A DNA stretch of 64,000 nt from Promethearchaeia archaeon (GTDB lineage Archaea > Asgardarchaeota > Lokiarchaeia > Sigyniarchaeales > SOKP01): NCBI GenBank assembly GCA_029856155.1, contig JAHQWL010000075.1, positions 32,001 to 96,000 on the forward strand, given 5' to 3'. The position numbers and the translations under genes were made by a program. This document shows positions 42,231 through 51,218 of the stretch, one piece after another. Within the stretch, counting starts at the first letter, position 1, and each line of letters opens with the position of its first letter. The notes under the pieces were generated by a model. The model did no database searches. It had not been told where the DNA came from and saw only the letters and a list, made by a program, of their open reading frames with translations.

Positions 42231-43187
42231 ATGAATGGTTCAAAAGAATTAAATAAAATTCTTTTTTGTGGTTTAGAAAGTGGTGGAAAAACTTCAATTT
42301 TGCTATTATTAGATAAAAAATTTAGTTTATTACCTACAGTTAAACCGACTATAAAAGCAAAAAGAACTTTCTATACAAACTCATTATTGGGAACCTCAAT
42401 TGTCCGTTGGGATTTAGGGGGTCAAAAAGGTTATAGAAAAATATATTTGGGTAATAAGAGCAAATATTTTACAGAAACGCAATCAATATTCTATGTTATA
42501 GATATTCAAGCACCTAAAAAATTTGAAGAATCATTAAGATTTCTTAAAGATATTGTAAGTGTAACCTCAGAGTCACATCCCGAAAATTTTCAGTTATTAA
42601 TATTACTCCATAAATACGATCCTGACATTAAAAATAAGAAAGAAATTTTAGATCATATCAATTACCTAGAAAATAAAATTTCATCTGCCATTAACAAAGT
42701 TAAGTTTTCTATTTTTAAAACTTCAATATATGATGAATCAAGTCTATTGAAGGCTTTTTCTGATGGTGTGTTTTTTGCAACACATAAGTCTAAAATGTTT
42801 GAAACCTTATTGAAAGAATATATGGGTAAAACTTACAATAGTTCTATGCTTCTACTTGATCAGAATTGCTTTATAATTGCTAGTAGAACAACAAATGAAA
42901 GTTATCAGAAAATTTGTGAAGCTATCGCTCCAAGATTAACTCAAGCATTAGAAAAATTAGAGGAATGGGATATAAATACAATTGATATTGTAACAAATAT
43001 AGAATTTCCAGAGAAACAATCAATCTATCAAAAAGAGGGAATAATCTTTCTTAGAAAATTAGATATAATTAAAACGAGATTTTATTTAATCGCACTTTGT
43101 CTAAATAAGAAAGTGAAAATTAAATCATATGAATATTTACCATTGTTAGCAGATAATTTAAAAAATTTACTAGAGAGTTTTGATTAA
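42231..43187 (+). CDS. Rag/Arf-like small GTPase with C-terminal roadblock-like domain
   Basis: GLESGGKTS, PT, WDLGGQ, HKYD, TSIYD; tail SSMLLLDQNCFIIAS. Confidence 0.85.
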   Translation: MNGSKELNKILFCGLESGGKTSILLLLDKKFSLLPTVKPTIKAKRTFYTNSLLGTSIVRWDLGGQKGYRKIYLGNKSKYFTETQSIFYVIDIQAPKKFEESLRFLKDIVSVTSESHPENFQLLILLHKYDPDIKNKKEILDHINYLENKISSAINKVKFSIFKTSIYDESSLLKAFSDGVFFATHKSKMFETLLKEYMGKTYNSSMLLLDQNCFIIASRTTNESYQKICEAIAPRLTQALEKLEEWDINTIDIVTNIEFPEKQSIYQKEGIIFLRKLDIIKTRFYLIALCLNKKVKIKSYEYLPLLADNLKNLLESFD

Positions 43188-43372: not shown

Positions 43373-44566
43373 ATGATAGCACCATCCAATGTAAATAAAT
43401 ATTATGTAGGACCTAAAGCTTTATTTGACCCAGACTACATCCCCCCCCACCTATTATATAGAAAAAAAGAAGAAGATTCCCTCTTTTCTATTTTAAATGA
43501 TTCAATTTCTGATGAGTTTAATCTCAACATACTCTATCAAGGAATTAATGGTATTGGAAAGAAAGTAATAGTTAATAAAGTATTAAACGATCTTTTAAAC
43601 CAAAATAAAGAATTCGTTAAAATTAATAAAATTTGTGTAGATTGTAAAGAAAAGAATCCTGAAGAATTAATTTTTTTATTGTTAAGTGAAATTAACGGAT
43701 TGTCAAATCTAAATTTCGATGTCCGACCACTATTAAATTCAGAAATACATCAATTATGGAATACGTTTAAGTTCATTTGTAATAGATTTGATTCTCATTT
43801 ATTTTTTATCTTTAATAACATCGAATATTTAGAACCCGAAATTTTTAATAAATTCTTACAATTTGGCAAAGAGTCAAATATAACTCTAATATCTACTGTA
43901 AATAAAATTATACAACCTGGAACAATGGAATTATTCTCTGAATTTGATTTGAAAAAAAGATTAAATTTTTATAATTATCAAGAGCTTTATTCTATTCTTA
44001 AACAAAGAGTATTATTAAGTTTTTCACAGGAAATAGATAGAAACCTAATTAGATACATAACAGATTTAATCTGTGAGCAATATGTACCAGTTCCGGGTAA
44101 AGGAATTGAAATCCTTCGAGATTTATATCCATTATTAAAAAACAAAAATATTTTAGGCAATTTTGATTTATTAGACATTTGTCAAAATAAATTTGACTCT
44201 TTTCAAATTTCTGATGAATTTAGTATGATTAACTATCTTTCTGAAGAAGATATATTGACAGTAATATTTTTAGATAATTTTTCAAATTATTTTATTAGTA
44301 AAAATAAATATTATATTTCTATAAAAGATTTACACGAATTATATGAAATTTCTTGTGAAACTTTAGAATATGAAAAAAGTATTATTGAATTTCGTAAAAT
44401 AACCGAAGAATTATTGAATATTGGAATTGTAAAACCATCAAAAAGAACATTTCATAAAAAAAGTACTCATGAAAATATTAATGGTTTAAATAATGATTCT
44501 TTCTTTATATTAATGAATCCTAAACAAATTAAGGTAATTATTGATGCAATTTTTAACCAGTGTTAA
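43373..44566 (+). CDS. divergent Cdc6/Orc1-like AAA+ protein with degenerate ATPase motifs
   Basis: LFDPDYIPPHLLYR..E, GINGIGKK, FNNIE, YNYQELYSILKQR, C-terminal wHTH. Confidence 0.8.
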   Translation: MIAPSNVNKYYVGPKALFDPDYIPPHLLYRKKEEDSLFSILNDSISDEFNLNILYQGINGIGKKVIVNKVLNDLLNQNKEFVKINKICVDCKEKNPEELIFLLLSEINGLSNLNFDVRPLLNSEIHQLWNTFKFICNRFDSHLFFIFNNIEYLEPEIFNKFLQFGKESNITLISTVNKIIQPGTMELFSEFDLKKRLNFYNYQELYSILKQRVLLSFSQEIDRNLIRYITDLICEQYVPVPGKGIEILRDLYPLLKNKNILGNFDLLDICQNKFDSFQISDEFSMINYLSEEDILTVIFLDNFSNYFISKNKYYISIKDLHELYEISCETLEYEKSIIEFRKITEELLNIGIVKPSKRTFHKKSTHENINGLNNDSFFILMNPKQIKVIIDAIFNQC

Positions 44567-44736: not shown

Positions 44737-47700
44737 TTGACTCATATTAAAAAAATTTCTATGAGTGGTTTCAAATCTTTTGGAGATCGAACAGTAACTA
44801 TCAAGCTCTCTAGTGGATTCACATGCATCGTAGGACCAAATGGGGCGGGTAAATCTAATATAATAGATGCTCTATGCTTCTCGTTAGGCAGATTAAGCAA
44901 AAAAACTATGAGAGCAAAAAGCTTAGAGGATCTAATCTTTGCTGGCTCACGAGGTAAAAATCCCTCCCAGAGAGCTTCTGTTACATTATATTTTGACAAT
45001 TCTGATAATGTTTTTCCAGGAGTGACTGGTGATTTTGAGATTACTCGCATTATTAAAAGGGGTGGTGGGGGAGGATATAAAATGAACGGAAAAAAAGTCA
45101 CCCGTCAGCAAATACTTAACGCTTTAGCCGCGGCAAATATTGATCCTGATGGTAGTAATCAATTCGTATTACAAGGAAAGATTGTTGAATTAACACATAT
45201 GAATCCTGAAGATCGCAGAAAATTTATTGAGGAATTAATAGGGCTTCAAAAATACGACGAAATGAAGGATGTTACTCTAAAGGAATTAGAAAAAGCAGAA
45301 AGAGATTTAGGACAGTTTGAAGCAATCTTCAAAGAAGTATCATCCCAACTGAAAAAAGTTGAAAAAGAAAAAAATGATGCTTTAGCTTGGAAAGAATTGG
45401 ATGAGCAAATAAATTTCTTAAATTCACAGTTAATTGCCTTGAAAATTTCAAAATTAAGAGAAGAAGAAGATGAATTAGAAAAAAAAATTGACGTTTCTTC
45501 AAAAATCGTTGAAGAATTGCAAGAAAAAATAAACCGGCAAGAAGATGTATTAAAACAAGAATCTCTTGTTATGGATAATATCCAAAAAACTATTACCGAC
45601 AAAGAAAAGGAAAGAGAGCAAATAACCGAAAATATAACTCAAATAAAAACTCAAATATCTTCAAGTCAAACAACTTTAAATTTAGATATAAAATCTATTG
45701 ATAAACTAACTAAAGAAATTGAATCCTTAGAAAGTCAGCAAATGAAACTTGAGGAGGGACAGACTTTTGATTCATTAATAGAAAGTGTCTCAAATGAAAT
45801 TTCAGAAAACGAAGATCATATTGAAGAAGCTAAAAAAGAAATTGAAAAAAGGCAACAAAGCCAAGCTGAACTAGACTTTAAAATAAAAAATAATGAAGAT
45901 GAAAAATCCCTTTTTAAAGCAGAAATTTCTAAAATACAACAAAGTGTATCATCTAATAACGCTCAAATTAAGGTTTTAAGAGGAAACATCAGAAAAAATG
46001 AAGAAAAGAAAGAAAAATTAGAAAACGAATTACAAAGGTTAAAAAAAGATGCTGAAAGCATCGATGAGGCTATTGAAGTCACCAAAAAAGCAGAATCAGA
46101 AATTAGAAATAGAATAAACCAATTGAATATTAAAATTTCTAAAGAAAATCAAAATCAAAAAGATTTAGAAAATAACATTAACTCCATCCAAGCAGAAAAG
46201 AATCAGCTAAATTCTAAATTGGCAAACTTTCAAGCTACATTGTCCTCTATAAGTACAGAAATTAAAATGAATCGTGAGAGCATACAAGAATTAAATGAAA
46301 AGAAAACTTCTATAGAGCAAAAGATTACGGATTTAAGTAAAGGTAAAGATGCTGAAAAAGCAGTAAAGGAATTACTGAGTGAAAATGATATTATTAATAA
46401 AGATTTAAGCGACTTAAAAGCAAAATTAAAACAAGAAAATTCAGTCTATAGGAAAAGTGAACAAGATCTAGAATTATTGAAAATGAAGAAATATTCTTGT
46501 GAATCAGAAATCAGTGATAATAATGCAAAGATTGATAATATTAATACAGAACTAAAAATTCTTACAAAAGAATTAACATCCATGGATAGAGAGAAAAATA
46601 ATTTAGAGTTGCAAGTAGATGCTCAAAATAACACTCTTACAGATATTACAAGTTCTACTGAAAAATTTATTATTAAAAAGGATAATGTACAAAGACGTTT
46701 AGAGGATCTTTCACAAGAAAAAGAAAATTTAACAAAAAAAATTGAGTCTTCAGAGGAAGAATACGAGAAAAATACAAAAGATATTACAGGAATTCTCCAA
46801 ATTTTAAATATGCTCACACAGAATATTAATATCTCAGTTGAATCTATTAAGGGTAATATACAACAATCAAACGCAGAGGCAATTGAATCTTCAGCAGAAG
46901 ATTTTAAAAAGTATATATTAGATATCATTGATATTATGAGAACAGTTGAGGATATTGGTGAAGACAGGGATAAATCTACTGAAATGACAGAAATGCTAGG
47001 TTCTATAATGCAAACTTTAAAAATGTTTACTGATAATGCTGATGACACAATTAGTCAATTAATCGATAAAGTAAAAGAATCAGCTGATATTGAAGTACAA
47101 AGTTCAACCTCTACATTTGATAGTTTTATTCAAGATCTAATGGAAATTCTTGAAAATGTATATCTCTCTTTAAGAAAACTAACTATGTCTAAAAGTCAAG
47201 AACTATACAAACAATTGGAAGAAATTTCAGATACTATTAAATCGCAAACTGATGATTTTAATAAAATTGAGAAAAAATTAACTGAAAGTAATATCCAAGA
47301 AAAACACCTATCTGAAAATCTTTCAACCTATAATAAAAGACTAAATGAAATAGATAAAAGAAATACTGAATTAACTGAAAGAATTAAAAAAGGAGAAGAA
47401 GCGATTAGTGAAAGAGAGGAAGTAATTAAGACCAGACAATCGGAAGCTAACACATTGGATAATGATATAGAGAAATTAAAGAAATTAAAGGATACATATT
47501 GGGATAACCTTTCTACAATTCAAGATGATATTGATAAAAAACAAAAAGAATTAGAGAATCTGAGAGAAAAATTACAAGAATTGCATGGAATCCAGAATTT
47601 ATTTGATAATATTACTGAAATTGATGATAACATAGAAAAATTGAATAACCTTATTGCAGAAAAGAAAAATTTAATAATAAACACAGAAGAAAATATTAAA

Positions 47701-49188
47701 AATATTCAAGAAGAACAAAACTCATATCAAAAAAAGATTGATGAACTAGTTCTAAAAAAGCAGAATTTCTGGGAAATAACAGAGAACTTGCGAAAACAAA
47801 TCGATGATGAAAATAAAGTGCTTGAAGATACAATGGATCGTTTAAGAGCACTTGAAAATGTAATGAGGATTATCAACTCTATTGAAGATATTAAAAAAGA
47901 AAATAATGATGCTAAAAATAGCGTTGAAACTTGCTTAAAGGATATTGAAGGATTAAATTCTCAGGTTGAAGAGATCCAAAAAAATGTTGATCAAAAACAA
48001 GAAGTGTTAGATTCTTTAAGAAATGAAAAAACAGAAGAGTTAGAATCACAGAAAGCAGCCCAAAAGAAATTAAATAAATTGAATAAAGATTTGCAGAAAT
48101 CTCAAGGGAAATTGAATGAGTTAAATAAAAATAAAGAAAGAGAACAGAAGATTATTGGGTTGCATCAAGATATAAAAGATACTGAAGAACAAATTGAATC
48201 AATAACAAAAGAATTAGGCAATTTTAAAGAGAATTTGGATAGTGAAAATGAAAAGAAAACCGAGAAACAAAAGGAGATTGATAAATTTATACAAGAAAAA
48301 GATGAATCATGGAAAAAACAAAAACAATATCAGAAAAATATAACTGACTTAAAATCAGATCTCTCTATGGAGAATTCTAAAATCAACAATTTTGAATCAA
48401 AAAAGATAATGTGCACTGATCAAATTGAAACTTTATTCCAGCGTTCTAAAGAATATGGGTCATTACCTCCTGTAACTGACGGACTTTCAGAAGCAGAATT
48501 ACAATCAGATATTGTAGAAAAAACACAGAACAAAAAAACTCTTGAACCTGTGAATTTAAAAGCAATTGAACAATATGACACTGTAAAGGAAAGATTTGAT
48601 GAGATAGATATGAGACGACAAACAATACAGAGAGAAAGGAAATCAATTCTAGATGCTATTGATAAAATTGAACTAGAAAAGACAAGAACATTCATGAAGG
48701 CTTATCACGAGATAAATAGAGAATTTAGTAGGATTTTTCAAAAGCTCAGTCCTGGTGGTTCAGCAAAAATGATTTTGGATAGACCAGATAAGCCATTTGA
48801 AGGAGGTATTAGCATAGAAGCAAGACCAAGGGGTAAAAAAATCAGCTCATTAGAAATATTAAGTGGTGGTGAAAAAACATTAGTAGCGTTATCTTTTATA
48901 TTTGCTGTTCAAGAATTTTATCCCGCTCCATTTTATGTAATGGATGAGATCGATGCGGCTTTGGACGGTCCAAACGTCCACAGAGTCTCTACAGTCATAA
49001 AGGAATTTGCTTCACAAGCTCAATTCATGGTAATAAGTCATAGAGAAGAGAATATTGTAAATGCAGATAGGATATACGGTGTATCCATGCAACAATCAGG
49101 TATTACAGACATATTTAGTGTTGATTTAGAGGAAGAGGCAAAACGTATTTTAGAACTTGAGGATATTGAGCCAACTATTACAGATTAA
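44737..49188 (+). CDS. smc: chromosome segregation SMC protein, extra-long, without canonical hinge
   Basis: GFKSF, GPNGAGKSN, VLQG, PVNLKAI, LSGGEK, MDEIDAALD, ISH. Confidence 0.95.
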   Translation: MTHIKKISMSGFKSFGDRTVTIKLSSGFTCIVGPNGAGKSNIIDALCFSLGRLSKKTMRAKSLEDLIFAGSRGKNPSQRASVTLYFDNSDNVFPGVTGDFEITRIIKRGGGGGYKMNGKKVTRQQILNALAAANIDPDGSNQFVLQGKIVELTHMNPEDRRKFIEELIGLQKYDEMKDVTLKELEKAERDLGQFEAIFKEVSSQLKKVEKEKNDALAWKELDEQINFLNSQLIALKISKLREEEDELEKKIDVSSKIVEELQEKINRQEDVLKQESLVMDNIQKTITDKEKEREQITENITQIKTQISSSQTTLNLDIKSIDKLTKEIESLESQQMKLEEGQTFDSLIESVSNEISENEDHIEEAKKEIEKRQQSQAELDFKIKNNEDEKSLFKAEISKIQQSVSSNNAQIKVLRGNIRKNEEKKEKLENELQRLKKDAESIDEAIEVTKKAESEIRNRINQLNIKISKENQNQKDLENNINSIQAEKNQLNSKLANFQATLSSISTEIKMNRESIQELNEKKTSIEQKITDLSKGKDAEKAVKELLSENDIINKDLSDLKAKLKQENSVYRKSEQDLELLKMKKYSCESEISDNNAKIDNINTELKILTKELTSMDREKNNLELQVDAQNNTLTDITSSTEKFIIKKDNVQRRLEDLSQEKENLTKKIESSEEEYEKNTKDITGILQILNMLTQNINISVESIKGNIQQSNAEAIESSAEDFKKYILDIIDIMRTVEDIGEDRDKSTEMTEMLGSIMQTLKMFTDNADDTISQLIDKVKESADIEVQSSTSTFDSFIQDLMEILENVYLSLRKLTMSKSQELYKQLEEISDTIKSQTDDFNKIEKKLTESNIQEKHLSENLSTYNKRLNEIDKRNTELTERIKKGEEAISEREEVIKTRQSEANTLDNDIEKLKKLKDTYWDNLSTIQDDIDKKQKELENLREKLQELHGIQNLFDNITEIDDNIEKLNNLIAEKKNLIINTEENIKNIQEEQNSYQKKIDELVLKKQNFWEITENLRKQIDDENKVLEDTMDRLRALENVMRIINSIEDIKKENNDAKNSVETCLKDIEGLNSQVEEIQKNVDQKQEVLDSLRNEKTEELESQKAAQKKLNKLNKDLQKSQGKLNELNKNKEREQKIIGLHQDIKDTEEQIESITKELGNFKENLDSENEKKTEKQKEIDKFIQEKDESWKKQKQYQKNITDLKSDLSMENSKINNFESKKIMCTDQIETLFQRSKEYGSLPPVTDGLSEAELQSDIVEKTQNKKTLEPVNLKAIEQYDTVKERFDEIDMRRQTIQRERKSILDAIDKIELEKTRTFMKAYHEINREFSRIFQKLSPGGSAKMILDRPDKPFEGGISIEARPRGKKISSLEILSGGEKTLVALSFIFAVQEFYPAPFYVMDEIDAALDGPNVHRVSTVIKEFASQAQFMVISHREENIVNADRIYGVSMQQSGITDIFSVDLEEEAKRILELEDIEPTITD

Positions 49189-49213
49189 TGAAAATATTTC
49201 ATAGAGGTAGGTA

Positions 49214-50224
49214 ATAATTTCAAAAAATGAACAAAATTCAGTTGAAAAACATAATTTTAATGAATGGACTATAAAAGATTTAAGGGAATTTGCATCGAAA
49301 AACAACATTAAAATTCCTTCTAAATCTAAAAAAAAGGATATTGTTGAATTACTACAAAATATAACATCTAATCCCGATTTCGTTGATCGATCCCTAGAAG
49401 AAGAAATGGAAGAACCTGAAATAGAATTAGTTGCTGAGTTTGATGATGATGAGGATCTTGCATTATTGAGAAAAGAGAAAGCTGAATTAAAATTTTGGCA
49501 AAAACCACCCTTTTCAAGTCTTTTAGATACAGAATTAGCAAAAGAATCCGACATTGCATTTTATGATTTATCAAAATTAGTAGATACTTTTTTTGATAAT
49601 ATGCTACATGAAGAATTGATTAATTATAAGATTTCTGGAATTGCGCTTAAAACGTCGGCATCTTTACATCATTACAAAATCTCAAGTATAATAAAAGAAG
49701 AAGAACAAATTCAGAAAAGAGAAGAACTAGAAAAATTCAGACAAAGTCATTCTAGAACAATCCCAAAAGCATTACCTCAGCCAATTTCCCCTAAAATGCA
49801 AATTGCTACCAAAGATGAACTATTTGATGCTATGCGATCAGCTATTATTGAAGTTATGCAGAATAAAGAAAAGTTAAAAAGAAGAAGAATGCGAAGAGAA
49901 GAGCTTAAAGATCAGAAGATCCAAATGAAGTCTAAAGCACAATTACCCAAAGAACTCTTAAAACATATTAGTGGAAAGGAGCAAACAGTTGAAGAATTGC
50001 ATGAATCATGGTACAATCGAATAAAAGCTACCATCAATTTAAACAATAAAGAGACTAATATTTATGATTTAATGAATATTATTAAAAATGAAGAAAAAAG
50101 TAGTATAGGGCGGAAATTTTCATTAGTACGTATGTTTTTAGCTTTAATGTTTTTATCTACTGGAAGTAAGTTATACTTATCTCAAGAGGAAGATTTCCAA
50201 AATATTTCAGTAGATATTGGTTAA
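49214..50224 (+). CDS. scpA: ScpA-like kleisin with N-terminal HEH/SAP-like extension (probable ATA/ATT start)
   Basis: Between smc and scpB; YDLSKLVDTF, ISGIAL..SA.L..YK, C-terminal FLALMFL...LYLSQEEDFQNI; in-frame upstream extension after GAGGT. Confidence 0.8.
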   Translation: MISKNEQNSVEKHNFNEWTIKDLREFASKNNIKIPSKSKKKDIVELLQNITSNPDFVDRSLEEEMEEPEIELVAEFDDDEDLALLRKEKAELKFWQKPPFSSLLDTELAKESDIAFYDLSKLVDTFFDNMLHEELINYKISGIALKTSASLHHYKISSIIKEEEQIQKREELEKFRQSHSRTIPKALPQPISPKMQIATKDELFDAMRSAIIEVMQNKEKLKRRRMRREELKDQKIQMKSKAQLPKELLKHISGKEQTVEELHESWYNRIKATINLNNKETNIYDLMNIIKNEEKSSIGRKFSLVRMFLALMFLSTGSKLYLSQEEDFQNISVDIG

Positions 50225-50264: not shown

Positions 50265-51218
50265 TTGGAAGAAGAACAGAATGGAGAACCAAATGAGGAA
50301 ATAGAAAATAATCATGCTAACACTTTTGATGAAGAAAATATAGAAGAATTTGAAGAAGAAATTACAGATTTAGAAAATGTGTCTGAAGAAGAGTCTATAC
50401 AAAGAGATTCAAATGATTCAATAGAAGAAATTGGAGATAATGTCATTGAAGAACAAGAAATAGAATCAGAAGATATTGAGAAAACAGAATTAACTGAAGA
50501 ATATGATAACGAACCAGAAAATCTTCTAATAGAAGAATCTATGGATACGCAAATTGTTGAAGATGGAAAAATTATAGAAGATGATATGTCAGAAAGTACC
50601 ATAGTTGATGAAAAAGCATTAGAACTTGATGAAAAAGCTCTTCGTCGAAATTTCATTGAGGCCGCTTTTTTTGCCGCTGGAGGTCCTTTAACAATAGAAG
50701 AGTTATCAAATAAATTAGAATTTTCAAAAAAGGAAGTAGAAAATTTAGTAAATGAATTAGCCTTTGATTATTTAGAGCGTACTACGTCACTAATAATAGC
50801 ACAAATTGGAGATAGATATCAAATGCAAATTAGACCAGAATACACAGAAAAGGTATCCAAATTTGCAAAAGGGGGGGCAATAGCAGAGAGGTATTTAAGA
50901 ACTTTGACGATTGTTGCTCTAAAGCAACCAATCTTAAAATCAATGGTGATAAAATTAAGGGGTAGCGGAGCATATGAGCATGTGAAATACCTTTTAGACA
51001 ACGACTTCATAAAAGCCGTAAAAAAAGGAAGATCTCACGAACTATCAACTACTGATAAGTATGCTGAAATGTTCGGATTGCCAAAAGATATAAGATTGCT
51101 GAAACAAGCTATGATTACTCAATTAGGACTTGAAGAAGGAGGAAAAAGTGAGCCTTCAGGTGAAATTGAGAACGCGGATCAAGGTGAACCTTTGAGTGAA
51201 AGTGAAGAAGAAGAATAA
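50265..51218 (+). CDS. scpB: ScpB (kite) with long acidic N-terminal extension
   Basis: IEAAFFAAGGPL, LRTLTIVALKQPI, LRG, TTDKYAEMFGL. Confidence 0.92.
   Translation: MEEEQNGEPNEEIENNHANTFDEENIEEFEEEITDLENVSEEESIQRDSNDSIEEIGDNVIEEQEIESEDIEKTELTEEYDNEPENLLIEESMDTQIVEDGKIIEDDMSESTIVDEKALELDEKALRRNFIEAAFFAAGGPLTIEELSNKLEFSKKEVENLVNELAFDYLERTTSLIIAQIGDRYQMQIRPEYTEKVSKFAKGGAIAERYLRTLTIVALKQPILKSMVIKLRGSGAYEHVKYLLDNDFIKAVKKGRSHELSTTDKYAEMFGLPKDIRLLKQAMITQLGLEEGGKSEPSGEIENADQGEPLSESEEEE

Follow-up and report, generated by a model that had tools for sequence, protein, structure and literature searches.

Tandem units in the arm of a hinge-less condensin-type SMC protein of Lokiarchaeia and their probable matched duplication on both strands

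In this work, we analysed the smc gene found in a 64,000-nucleotide (nt) stretch of DNA from a Lokiarchaeia archaeon (contig JAHQWL010000075.1, positions 32,001 to 96,000; hereafter the window). Its product is a condensin-type SMC protein of 1483 amino acids (aa), encoded together with kleisin and kite partners and read from a TTG start in the open reading frame (ORF) and its translation. In the order to which this genome belongs, a helical turn has taken the place of the globular hinge, and the arm has become longer. Both strands of the arm bear tandem units of about one hundred residues, and a sister clade carries a shorter form of the protein which differs from the long one by exactly one unit per strand. 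Taken together, the results make it probable that the arm of this hinge-less SMC is composed of tandem units and was lengthened by their matched duplication on both strands.

The SMC nature of the protein follows from its heads. The N-terminal head is matched by PF02463 (117 bits at aa 3–138) and bears the Walker A motif GPNGAGKS at aa 33, while the signature LSGGEK at aa 1375, followed by DEIDAALD, supplies the head half with the C-terminal signature motif and Walker B. The structures of Smc heads align with aa 1255–1473, and the Pyrococcus Smc head 5xei matches the protein with E 3e-120. The TIGR02168 model gave 614.0 bits, which is above its cut-off of 567.35, and the archaeal-type model TIGR02169 gave 620.7 bits, which is below its cut-off of 729.4. 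Rad50 models reached 41–111 bits against cut-offs of 700–1087, the model of the Archaea-specific SMC-related protein (ASRP, NF045487) reached 166 bits with a cut-off of 300, and a search for CxxC across the whole 1483-aa protein found none. The named orthologues come from Lokiarchaeia/Promethearchaeota metagenome genomes.

The first-pass annotation of the window, made from its sequence, had proposed that each strand of the arm contains four repeats marked by short motifs, and the positions it had given proved accurate. In the inbound (C) strand, the motifs KDTYW, KQNFW, KTEEL and KDESW start at aa 918, 1008, 1098 and 1188, i.e., at a spacing of exactly 90 aa, and their final codons lie at nt 47500, 47770, 48040 and 48310 with the exact 270-nt period claimed. 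In the outbound (N) strand, the motifs ISSSQ, VSSNN, LSSIS and IDNIN start at aa 307, 404, 502 and 599 (a spacing of 97/98/97 aa), and their second codons are found at nt 45658, 45949, 46243 and 46534, thus reproducing the reported 291/294/291-nt spacing. The number of units had to be revised: three per strand are clear, the outer "fourth" ones are weak (z 2.0 at aa 599 and 2.6 at aa 1188), and three clear units flanked by degenerate ones are a more accurate description than four.

The period is evident at the level of the whole protein. In a BLOSUM62 self-comparison, the top three diagonals were the lags 90, 180 and 98, with the lags 97 and 195 near the top. In a profile of 120 orthologues, the C-arm gave 0.55 for lag 90 and 0.38 for lag 180, the next lag being 0.12, and in the N-arm the lag 195 stood clear of the others. 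As a null, we shuffled 7-residue blocks (n = 500), so that the heptad phase and the local composition were kept. The results clearly showed that lag 90 in the C-arm (0.83; 99th percentile of the null, 0.25) and lag 195, which is 97 + 98, in the N-arm (0.63; 99th percentile, 0.21) exceeded all 500 shuffles. For comparisons of one unit with another, 1500 random coil-vs-coil pairs from the same protein served as a background, and none of them equalled the best units (Table 1). The claim that the repeat scores would rise above the heptad background is thus well supported.

Table 1. Features of the smc operon in the window and of the arm of the 1483-aa SMC. Counts out of 1500 refer to random coil-vs-coil pairs.
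Feature	Position in the window (nt)	Strand	Residues (aa)	Description
smc	44737–49188	+	1483 aa	Condensin-type SMC heads, without hinge domain
N0	45364–45654	+	210–306	z 1.3–2.2 vs. other N units; weakly related
N1	45655–45945	+	307–403	ISSSQ start; loop aa 335–343 (nt 45739–45765); z 4.6 vs. N2 (0/1500)
N2	45946–46239	+	404–501	VSSNN start; loop aa 436–441 (nt 46042–46059); z 4.6 vs. N1, 4.5 vs. N3
N3	46240–46530	+	502–598	LSSIS start; loop aa 535–538 (nt 46339–46350); z 4.5 vs. N2 (0/1500)
N4	46531–46821	+	599–695	IDNIN start; z 2.0 vs. N3 (30/1500); weak, leads into apex
Apex region	46774–47226	+	~680–830	In place of the hinge; turn aa 741–748 (nt 46957–46980)
C0	47218–47487	+	828–917	z 0.1–1.2 vs. 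other C units; no clear repeat
C1	47488–47757	+	918–1007	KDTYW start; z 4.7 vs. C2 (0/1500)
C2	47758–48027	+	1008–1097	KQNFW start; z 4.7 vs. C1 (0/1500)
C3	48028–48297	+	1098–1187	KTEEL start; z 2.2–2.6 vs. C1 and C2 (8–26/1500); moderate
KDESW stretch	48298–48567	+	1188–1277	Trp start motif, then head-proximal joint; z 2.6 vs. C3 only
scpA-like (kleisin)	49406–50224	+	272 aa	PF02616 weak, 16.8 bits, below cut-off of 24.6
scpB (kite)	50265–51218	+	317 aa	PF04079 114.5 bits and TIGR00281 94.2 bits, both above cut-offs

The units are diverged: they share 13–22% identity with one another, and neither Tandem Repeats Finder nor a second repeat finder detected a 270- or 291-nt repeat at the DNA level. 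In profile comparisons by hhalign, C1 matched C2 with a probability of 93–95% (E 4e-7 to 6e-8 over 87–90 ungapped columns) and N1 matched N2 with a probability of 88% (E 3.5e-6); the same program found no repeat in aa 1188–1277 and, in its self-comparison mode, no off-diagonal matches. Over nine long proteins, the mean score of C3 to C1 and C2 was 46–49, vs. 87 between C1 and C2. There is also a hint of similarity between N and C units at lag 618 (hhalign probability 48%). Each unit tends to carry its own landmarks: Trp at aa 922, 1012 and 1192, of which Trp 1012 is nearly invariant across both families and Trp 1192 is invariant, Ser-Ser at aa 308, 405 and 503, and one loop per N unit.

The most informative comparison is provided by the short form of the protein, which is known from three assemblies in all. 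One of them, named Candidatus Sigynarchaeota at NCBI, encodes an SMC of 1296 aa (P0129), and two more genomes, representing a family within the same order, encode an SMC of 1299 aa; in the one genome checked, scpB lies downstream of the 1299-aa smc in the same arrangement as in the long form. Two independent alignments showed that P0129 is shorter than the long form by 28 + 69 = 97 aa in the N-arm, by exactly 90 aa in the C-arm and by 5 aa in the turn; on the numbering of the 1483-aa protein, the 97 aa fall within 479–588 and the 90 aa at ~869–962. Alignment-free distances lead to the same result. From GPNG to the N-side apex motif there are 653 aa in the long form and 557 aa in the short one, and from the C-side apex motif to LSGGEK there are 581 and 491 aa, respectively, so that, between conserved anchors, the N strand of the short form is shorter by 96 aa and its C strand by 90 aa. 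This amounts to a difference of exactly one unit per strand. In the tree of the heads, the hinge-less clade is supported at 100/100 and divides into two sister groups, namely the short form (100/100) and the long form (93/96). The short form keeps lag 90 (0.72–0.86, 0/500 shuffles), and its structure predicted by AlphaFold2 (AF2) has two N-arm loops vs. three in the long form.

The short form also indicates which units of the long form are the extra ones. Its single Trp-bearing C unit scores 108 with C1, 122 with C2 and 55 with C3, and its middle N unit scores 117 with N2, 97 with N3 and 69 with N1. Since the short-form unit matches both members in each case, the extra units of the long form are members of the pairs N2/N3 and C1/C2. 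Of these, C2 aligns collinearly with the Trp-bearing unit of the short form, C1 is without a counterpart there, and N3 lies in the stretch that is absent. The flanking parts are shared: N0 is strongly conserved with N0 of the short form (score 183), N4 is orthologous to its last N unit (score 93), and aa 1188–1277 are 41% identical to the corresponding stretch.

The lengths and the repeats were followed across the family. In a survey of 301 genomes of the phylum, in which ORF lengths and the identity of the C-terminal head (C-head) were recorded, the order represented in the window had frames of ~1473–1500 aa with C-heads 81–100% identical, and the other families had frames of ~1183–1237 aa with C-heads 44–52% identical. 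Nine canonical Asgard SMCs trimmed to a common start were 1183–1205 aa long, and the five canonical proteins scanned against Pfam bore the hinge PF06470 at 110–127 bits. The earlier statement that the protein is about 300 aa longer than a typical SMC therefore agrees with the comparison to these hinge-bearing Asgard proteins. In a second family, the arms share only 29% identity with those of the 1483-aa SMC; three long proteins from it had the lags 195 and 90 at the top with 0/500 shuffles, and nine hinge-bearing Asgard SMCs subjected to the same test had no consistent common lag. In total, lag 90 in the C-arm exceeded 500/500 heptad-block shuffles in seven proteins from three lineages, and lag 195 in the N-arm did so in four long proteins, being weaker in the short forms (p 0.006–0.16). 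The repeats are thus limited to the hinge-less family. A weak recurrent top lag of 153–160 aa (p ~0.006–0.17) was noted in the C-arms of most hinge-bearing Asgard proteins (L041, L042, L048, L050 and others).

Within the hinge-less family, there are five full-length clusters of 1464–1497 aa and one cluster of 1296 aa (P0129), and the long class shows no arm indel of at least 3 aa among clusters down to 32% identity. No complete protein of intermediate length was found in 461 Asgard genomes or in the 150 best representatives from a library of 1.8 billion proteins; frames of intermediate length in fragmented genomes were left uncounted and, in the cases where the arithmetic was checked, lay at contig ends. 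The orthologue lengths are therefore discrete, as had been expected, namely 1183–1205 aa for the hinge-bearing proteins and 1296–1299 or 1464–1497 aa for the hinge-less ones, and a continuous distribution was not found. The predicted step of about 187 aa was seen exactly once, as 96–97 + 90 aa, giving two length classes and not a series.

Four proteins considered as additional arm classes (P0235, P0160, P0268 and P0260) were rejected as intein-bearing or C-terminally extended canonical SMCs. P0235, P0160 and P0268 are canonical archaeal SMCs with inteins (Intein_splicing with or without LAGLIDADG) just after Walker A, which mimic "long" SMCs in length lists. Attempts to place the additional length relative to canonical proteins were set aside as well: a global profile alignment of the long form with canonical SMCs scattered it over many gaps and cannot pinpoint the "extra" units, and a local match of aa 410–694 of the long form to aa 236–494 of a canonical protein was no better than cross-arm matches.

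The Pfam hinge PF06470 found no match in the 1483-aa SMC, its 120 best orthologues, the second long family or the short forms, and a profile of the canonical Asgard hinge showed no similarity to the 1483-aa SMC (E 0.6–0.7). In the AF2 model, the apex region that stands in place of the hinge consists of two long helices and a loop at the turn, the latter with a predicted local distance difference test score (pLDDT) below 50. A cluster of indels at aa 742 is the sole indel hotspot among the orthologues, and the apex blocks aa 691–720 and 781–840 are 83–92% conserved, which is above the arms. The strands beside the turn (aa 666–737 and 737–808) are weakly alike (lag 71, hhalign probability 57%). 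Outside the window, a Helarchaeota SMC-type protein of 1260 aa (P0210) also has no Pfam hinge; it carries C-K-T-C, a CxxC motif, at about aa 628 in its exact centre, which resembles a zinc hook of the Rad50 type at the arm tip, and the 90/195-aa period was not seen in it.

The AF2 model of aa 230–1230 (37 sequences, mean pLDDT 78) is entirely helical, and its breaks are located at the three N-arm loops and the turn listed in Table 1; apart from a lone kink at aa 951, the C strand is unbroken. The predicted structure thus shows one short loop per N unit and none in the C strand, which accounts for the N units being 7–8 aa longer than the C units while covering the same span of the rod. With a turn at ~745 and antiparallel strands, N1–N3 should lie opposite C3–C1, and the pair N2/N3 should face the pair C1/C2. 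The dips of confidence in the C strand, at aa ~940–959 and ~1030–1049, would be opposite the N loops according to the same hairpin geometry. The strands from head to turn are ~570 and 541 aa long, and the arm could be 520–560 aa when 0–80 aa of the tip are counted as apex.

These data can be combined in the following model. Each outbound unit of 97–98 aa would be a helix of ~92 aa with a short conserved loop, and each inbound unit of exactly 90 aa a nearly unbroken helix. One N unit and one C unit would together form a physical segment of ~13 nm (our own estimate, at 0.148 nm per residue), i.e., approximately one superhelical turn of a two-stranded coiled coil. The units probably arose by tandem duplication matched on the two strands, and a change of length by whole units would preserve the rotational phase between the heads and the tip; such a constraint was uncovered by the resizing experiments on Bacillus Smc. 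As to the direction of the change, we favour, with modest preference, the gain of one matched pair in the lineage of this genome, because the single unit of the short form is similar to both members of N2/N3 and likewise of C1/C2. When two unit pairs are subtracted, arms of ~360–375 aa are left, which is near the canonical length, and this arithmetic suggests two rounds of growth after the loss of the hinge. A more general proposal, to which we give slightly less than even weight, is that matched duplication of one-turn units on both strands is the natural route between the permitted arm lengths of SMC proteins, taken in this order at least two times after the hinge was replaced, with the arm growing from ~50 to ~67 and then to ~80 nm. 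The idea of natural arm-length quantisation by matched duplication, put forward in the first-pass annotation, is thereby supported, with the facing of N and C units drawn from hairpin geometry.

Several points weigh against this model. Within the long form, the scores are 87 for C1/C2 and 90 for N2/N3, below the 97–122 that these units reach with the corresponding unit of the short form; a duplication near the split, or a unit pair lost by the sister clade, would account for such scores roughly as well as a later gain. If one strand changed by itself, a mismatch of 90 aa would result, and the survival of such an intermediate is unexplained. The facing of the units reflects geometry and not observed contacts; around the apex, the pLDDT is 45–70 and the models of the long and short forms disagree. 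The absolute arm length hinges on where the apex starts, so that we claim no agreement with the published modes. Finally, the E-values of hhalign are inflated for coil profiles: unrelated segments of canonical SMC coils give ~1e-5, and comparisons of N-arm with C-arm or of canonical with canonical coil give 1e-5 to 1e-9 at arbitrary offsets. For this reason, we relied on the shuffles and the empirical backgrounds instead of these values.

The alternative that survives best, although we regard it as rather unlikely, is that the full matched set was present in the ancestor and that an N unit and a C unit were later lost in the Sigynarchaeota-type clade, so that the difference records a shortening. 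On the head tree, where the short form is the sister group of all long forms, gain and loss each require a single change, and an older duplication followed by loss would make the long-form paralogues less alike than each is to the short-form unit, just as the above scores indicate. After a loss, however, the remaining unit should resemble its true orthologue only, whereas the short-form unit is nearly equally similar to both members of each pair, with the other units at ~55–69; in addition, C1/C2 is the most similar pair of the C-arm.

According to another explanation, which we consider improbable, the period represents repeated functional sites (the loop, the Trp and the Ser-Ser) used for zipping of the arm or for binding a partner in a tropomyosin-like manner, with the number of units setting the number of sites. 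The landmarks do recur in every unit and are conserved between families with arm identities of 29%, the arms bear no indel of at least 3 aa among clusters down to 32% identity, and periodic sites of the tropomyosin type and rod formation were discussed as alternatives by Burmann et al. (PMC5344682). No partner is known, however, and such sites would be compatible with duplication under a phase rule, thus representing an addition to it more than a true rival. Convergence without duplication, where each superhelical turn evolves under the same packing constraints, appears very unlikely. The low identity of the units and the absence of a DNA-level repeat would agree with it, but canonical SMC arms obey the same packing rules and show no such period, and a sister clade that differs by exactly one unit per strand, at the most similar pair and with a unit matching both members, bears the signature of a whole-unit indel. 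The possibility that heptad periodicity and a biased composition merely mimic repeats was ruled out by the block shuffles and the 1500-pair coil background, for although coiled coils give many weak off-diagonal matches, lags in multiples of 7 reach z ~4–6 and hhalign inflates coil-profile scores, 90 is no multiple of 7, and the lags 90 and 195 exceeded all shuffles in the seven and four proteins, respectively, mentioned above.

In the window, smc is followed by the genes of its partners (Table 1). The scpA-like gene was assigned because it sits between smc and scpB, the PF02616 match being weak and restricted to the C-terminal part of the 272-aa ORF. The gap between smc and the called scpA start is 217 nt (49189–49405), and the ORF occupying the place of scpA in the operon of the short form is longer (393 aa; L059, 1099–2280, minus strand), so that the start at 49406 may have been called too late. 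On the 5′ side of smc and in the same orientation are the gene of a Gtr1/RagA-type small GTPase (42231–43187, plus strand; PF04670, 84 bits) and a 397-aa ORF without a Pfam family (43373–44566, plus strand). The same genome encodes a further SMC paralogue on another contig (G000 contig C26; L010, 5948–9415, minus strand). It is 1155 aa long, its heads are divergent, and its hinge match is weak but above the threshold; the adjoining ORFs (416 and 215 aa) could be assigned to no Pfam family. This paralogue may belong to the SMC5/6-related complex described for Asgard archaea. Asgard archaea have been reported to carry two SMC complexes (bioRxiv 10.1101/2024.01.07.573240), and the presence of a second, hinge-bearing paralogue in this genome fits that view.

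A text search of the literature found no paper describing arm repeats or hinge loss in the SMC of Lokiarchaeia. So far, the periodic-length rule of SMC proteins has rested on engineered Bacillus proteins and length histograms. The present case adds a natural sequence record of the step, with one unit per strand at positions that should face each other by hairpin geometry, two sister proteins exactly one step apart, and an arm length that stays constant within a class despite divergence of the arm sequence down to 29% identity. These features occur in an SMC that has lost the hinge, which is usually regarded as a defining domain. They also pose a puzzle, namely how two separate insertions ~1.2 kb apart in one gene were fixed jointly.

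With archaeal Smc (Pyrococcus 5XEI, 5XNS and 4I99) and the hinge-bearing Asgard SMCs, the Lokiarchaeia protein shares homologous heads, the C-head being 44–52% identical to that of the Asgard proteins; the archaeal and Asgard canonical SMCs differ in their length of ~1170–1205 aa, in a PF06470 hinge of 110–127 bits and in having no 90/195-aa period. The hinge-less SMC variants of marine Actinobacteria (PMC12153180) likewise combine SMC-type heads with a long antiparallel coil, as predicted for our protein, and have neither a hinge nor a CxxC hook, but they form a bacterial clade in which arm repeats and unit-wise length classes are undescribed. Rad50/SbcC resembles our protein in the ABC-type head and in a coiled-coil hairpin without a globular hinge, the hairpin of our protein being a predicted one; unlike Rad50/SbcC, the Lokiarchaeia protein has no CxxC at the tip, and its partners are ScpA/ScpB and not Mre11. 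Tropomyosin is also a long coiled coil of equal units, and it tolerates the removal of a whole unit (cited in PMC5344682). It is, however, a parallel dimer with actin-binding periods of ~40 aa, whereas here the coil would be an intramolecular antiparallel hairpin, in which each unit must exist twice, once per strand.

The closest parallel is the Smc-ScpAB complex of B. subtilis, which has the same type of head and the same kleisin and kite partners. Resized Bacillus Smc functions only in length windows with a period of 91 aa, the superhelical period being ~99 aa. In natural SMC proteins, the arm lengths form modes spaced by about 100 aa, the main ones being 238, 341 and 515 aa and the lesser ones 163 and 423 aa, and in Bacillus Smc the dimerisation domain can be exchanged for the Rad50 zinc hook (PMC5344682). 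The B. subtilis rule was derived from engineered constructs and from histograms of hinge-bearing proteins, and no sequence repeats in the arm were reported (PMC5344682). In the Lokiarchaeia protein, the arm consists of tandem units that can be recognised as such, a hinge is naturally lacking, and sister clades stand one unit pair apart. The step amounts to 90 aa for the C strand and 96–97 aa for the N strand, and by our analysis the difference of 90 aa per C strand between the long and short forms fits the 91–99-aa period rule of Burmann 2017.

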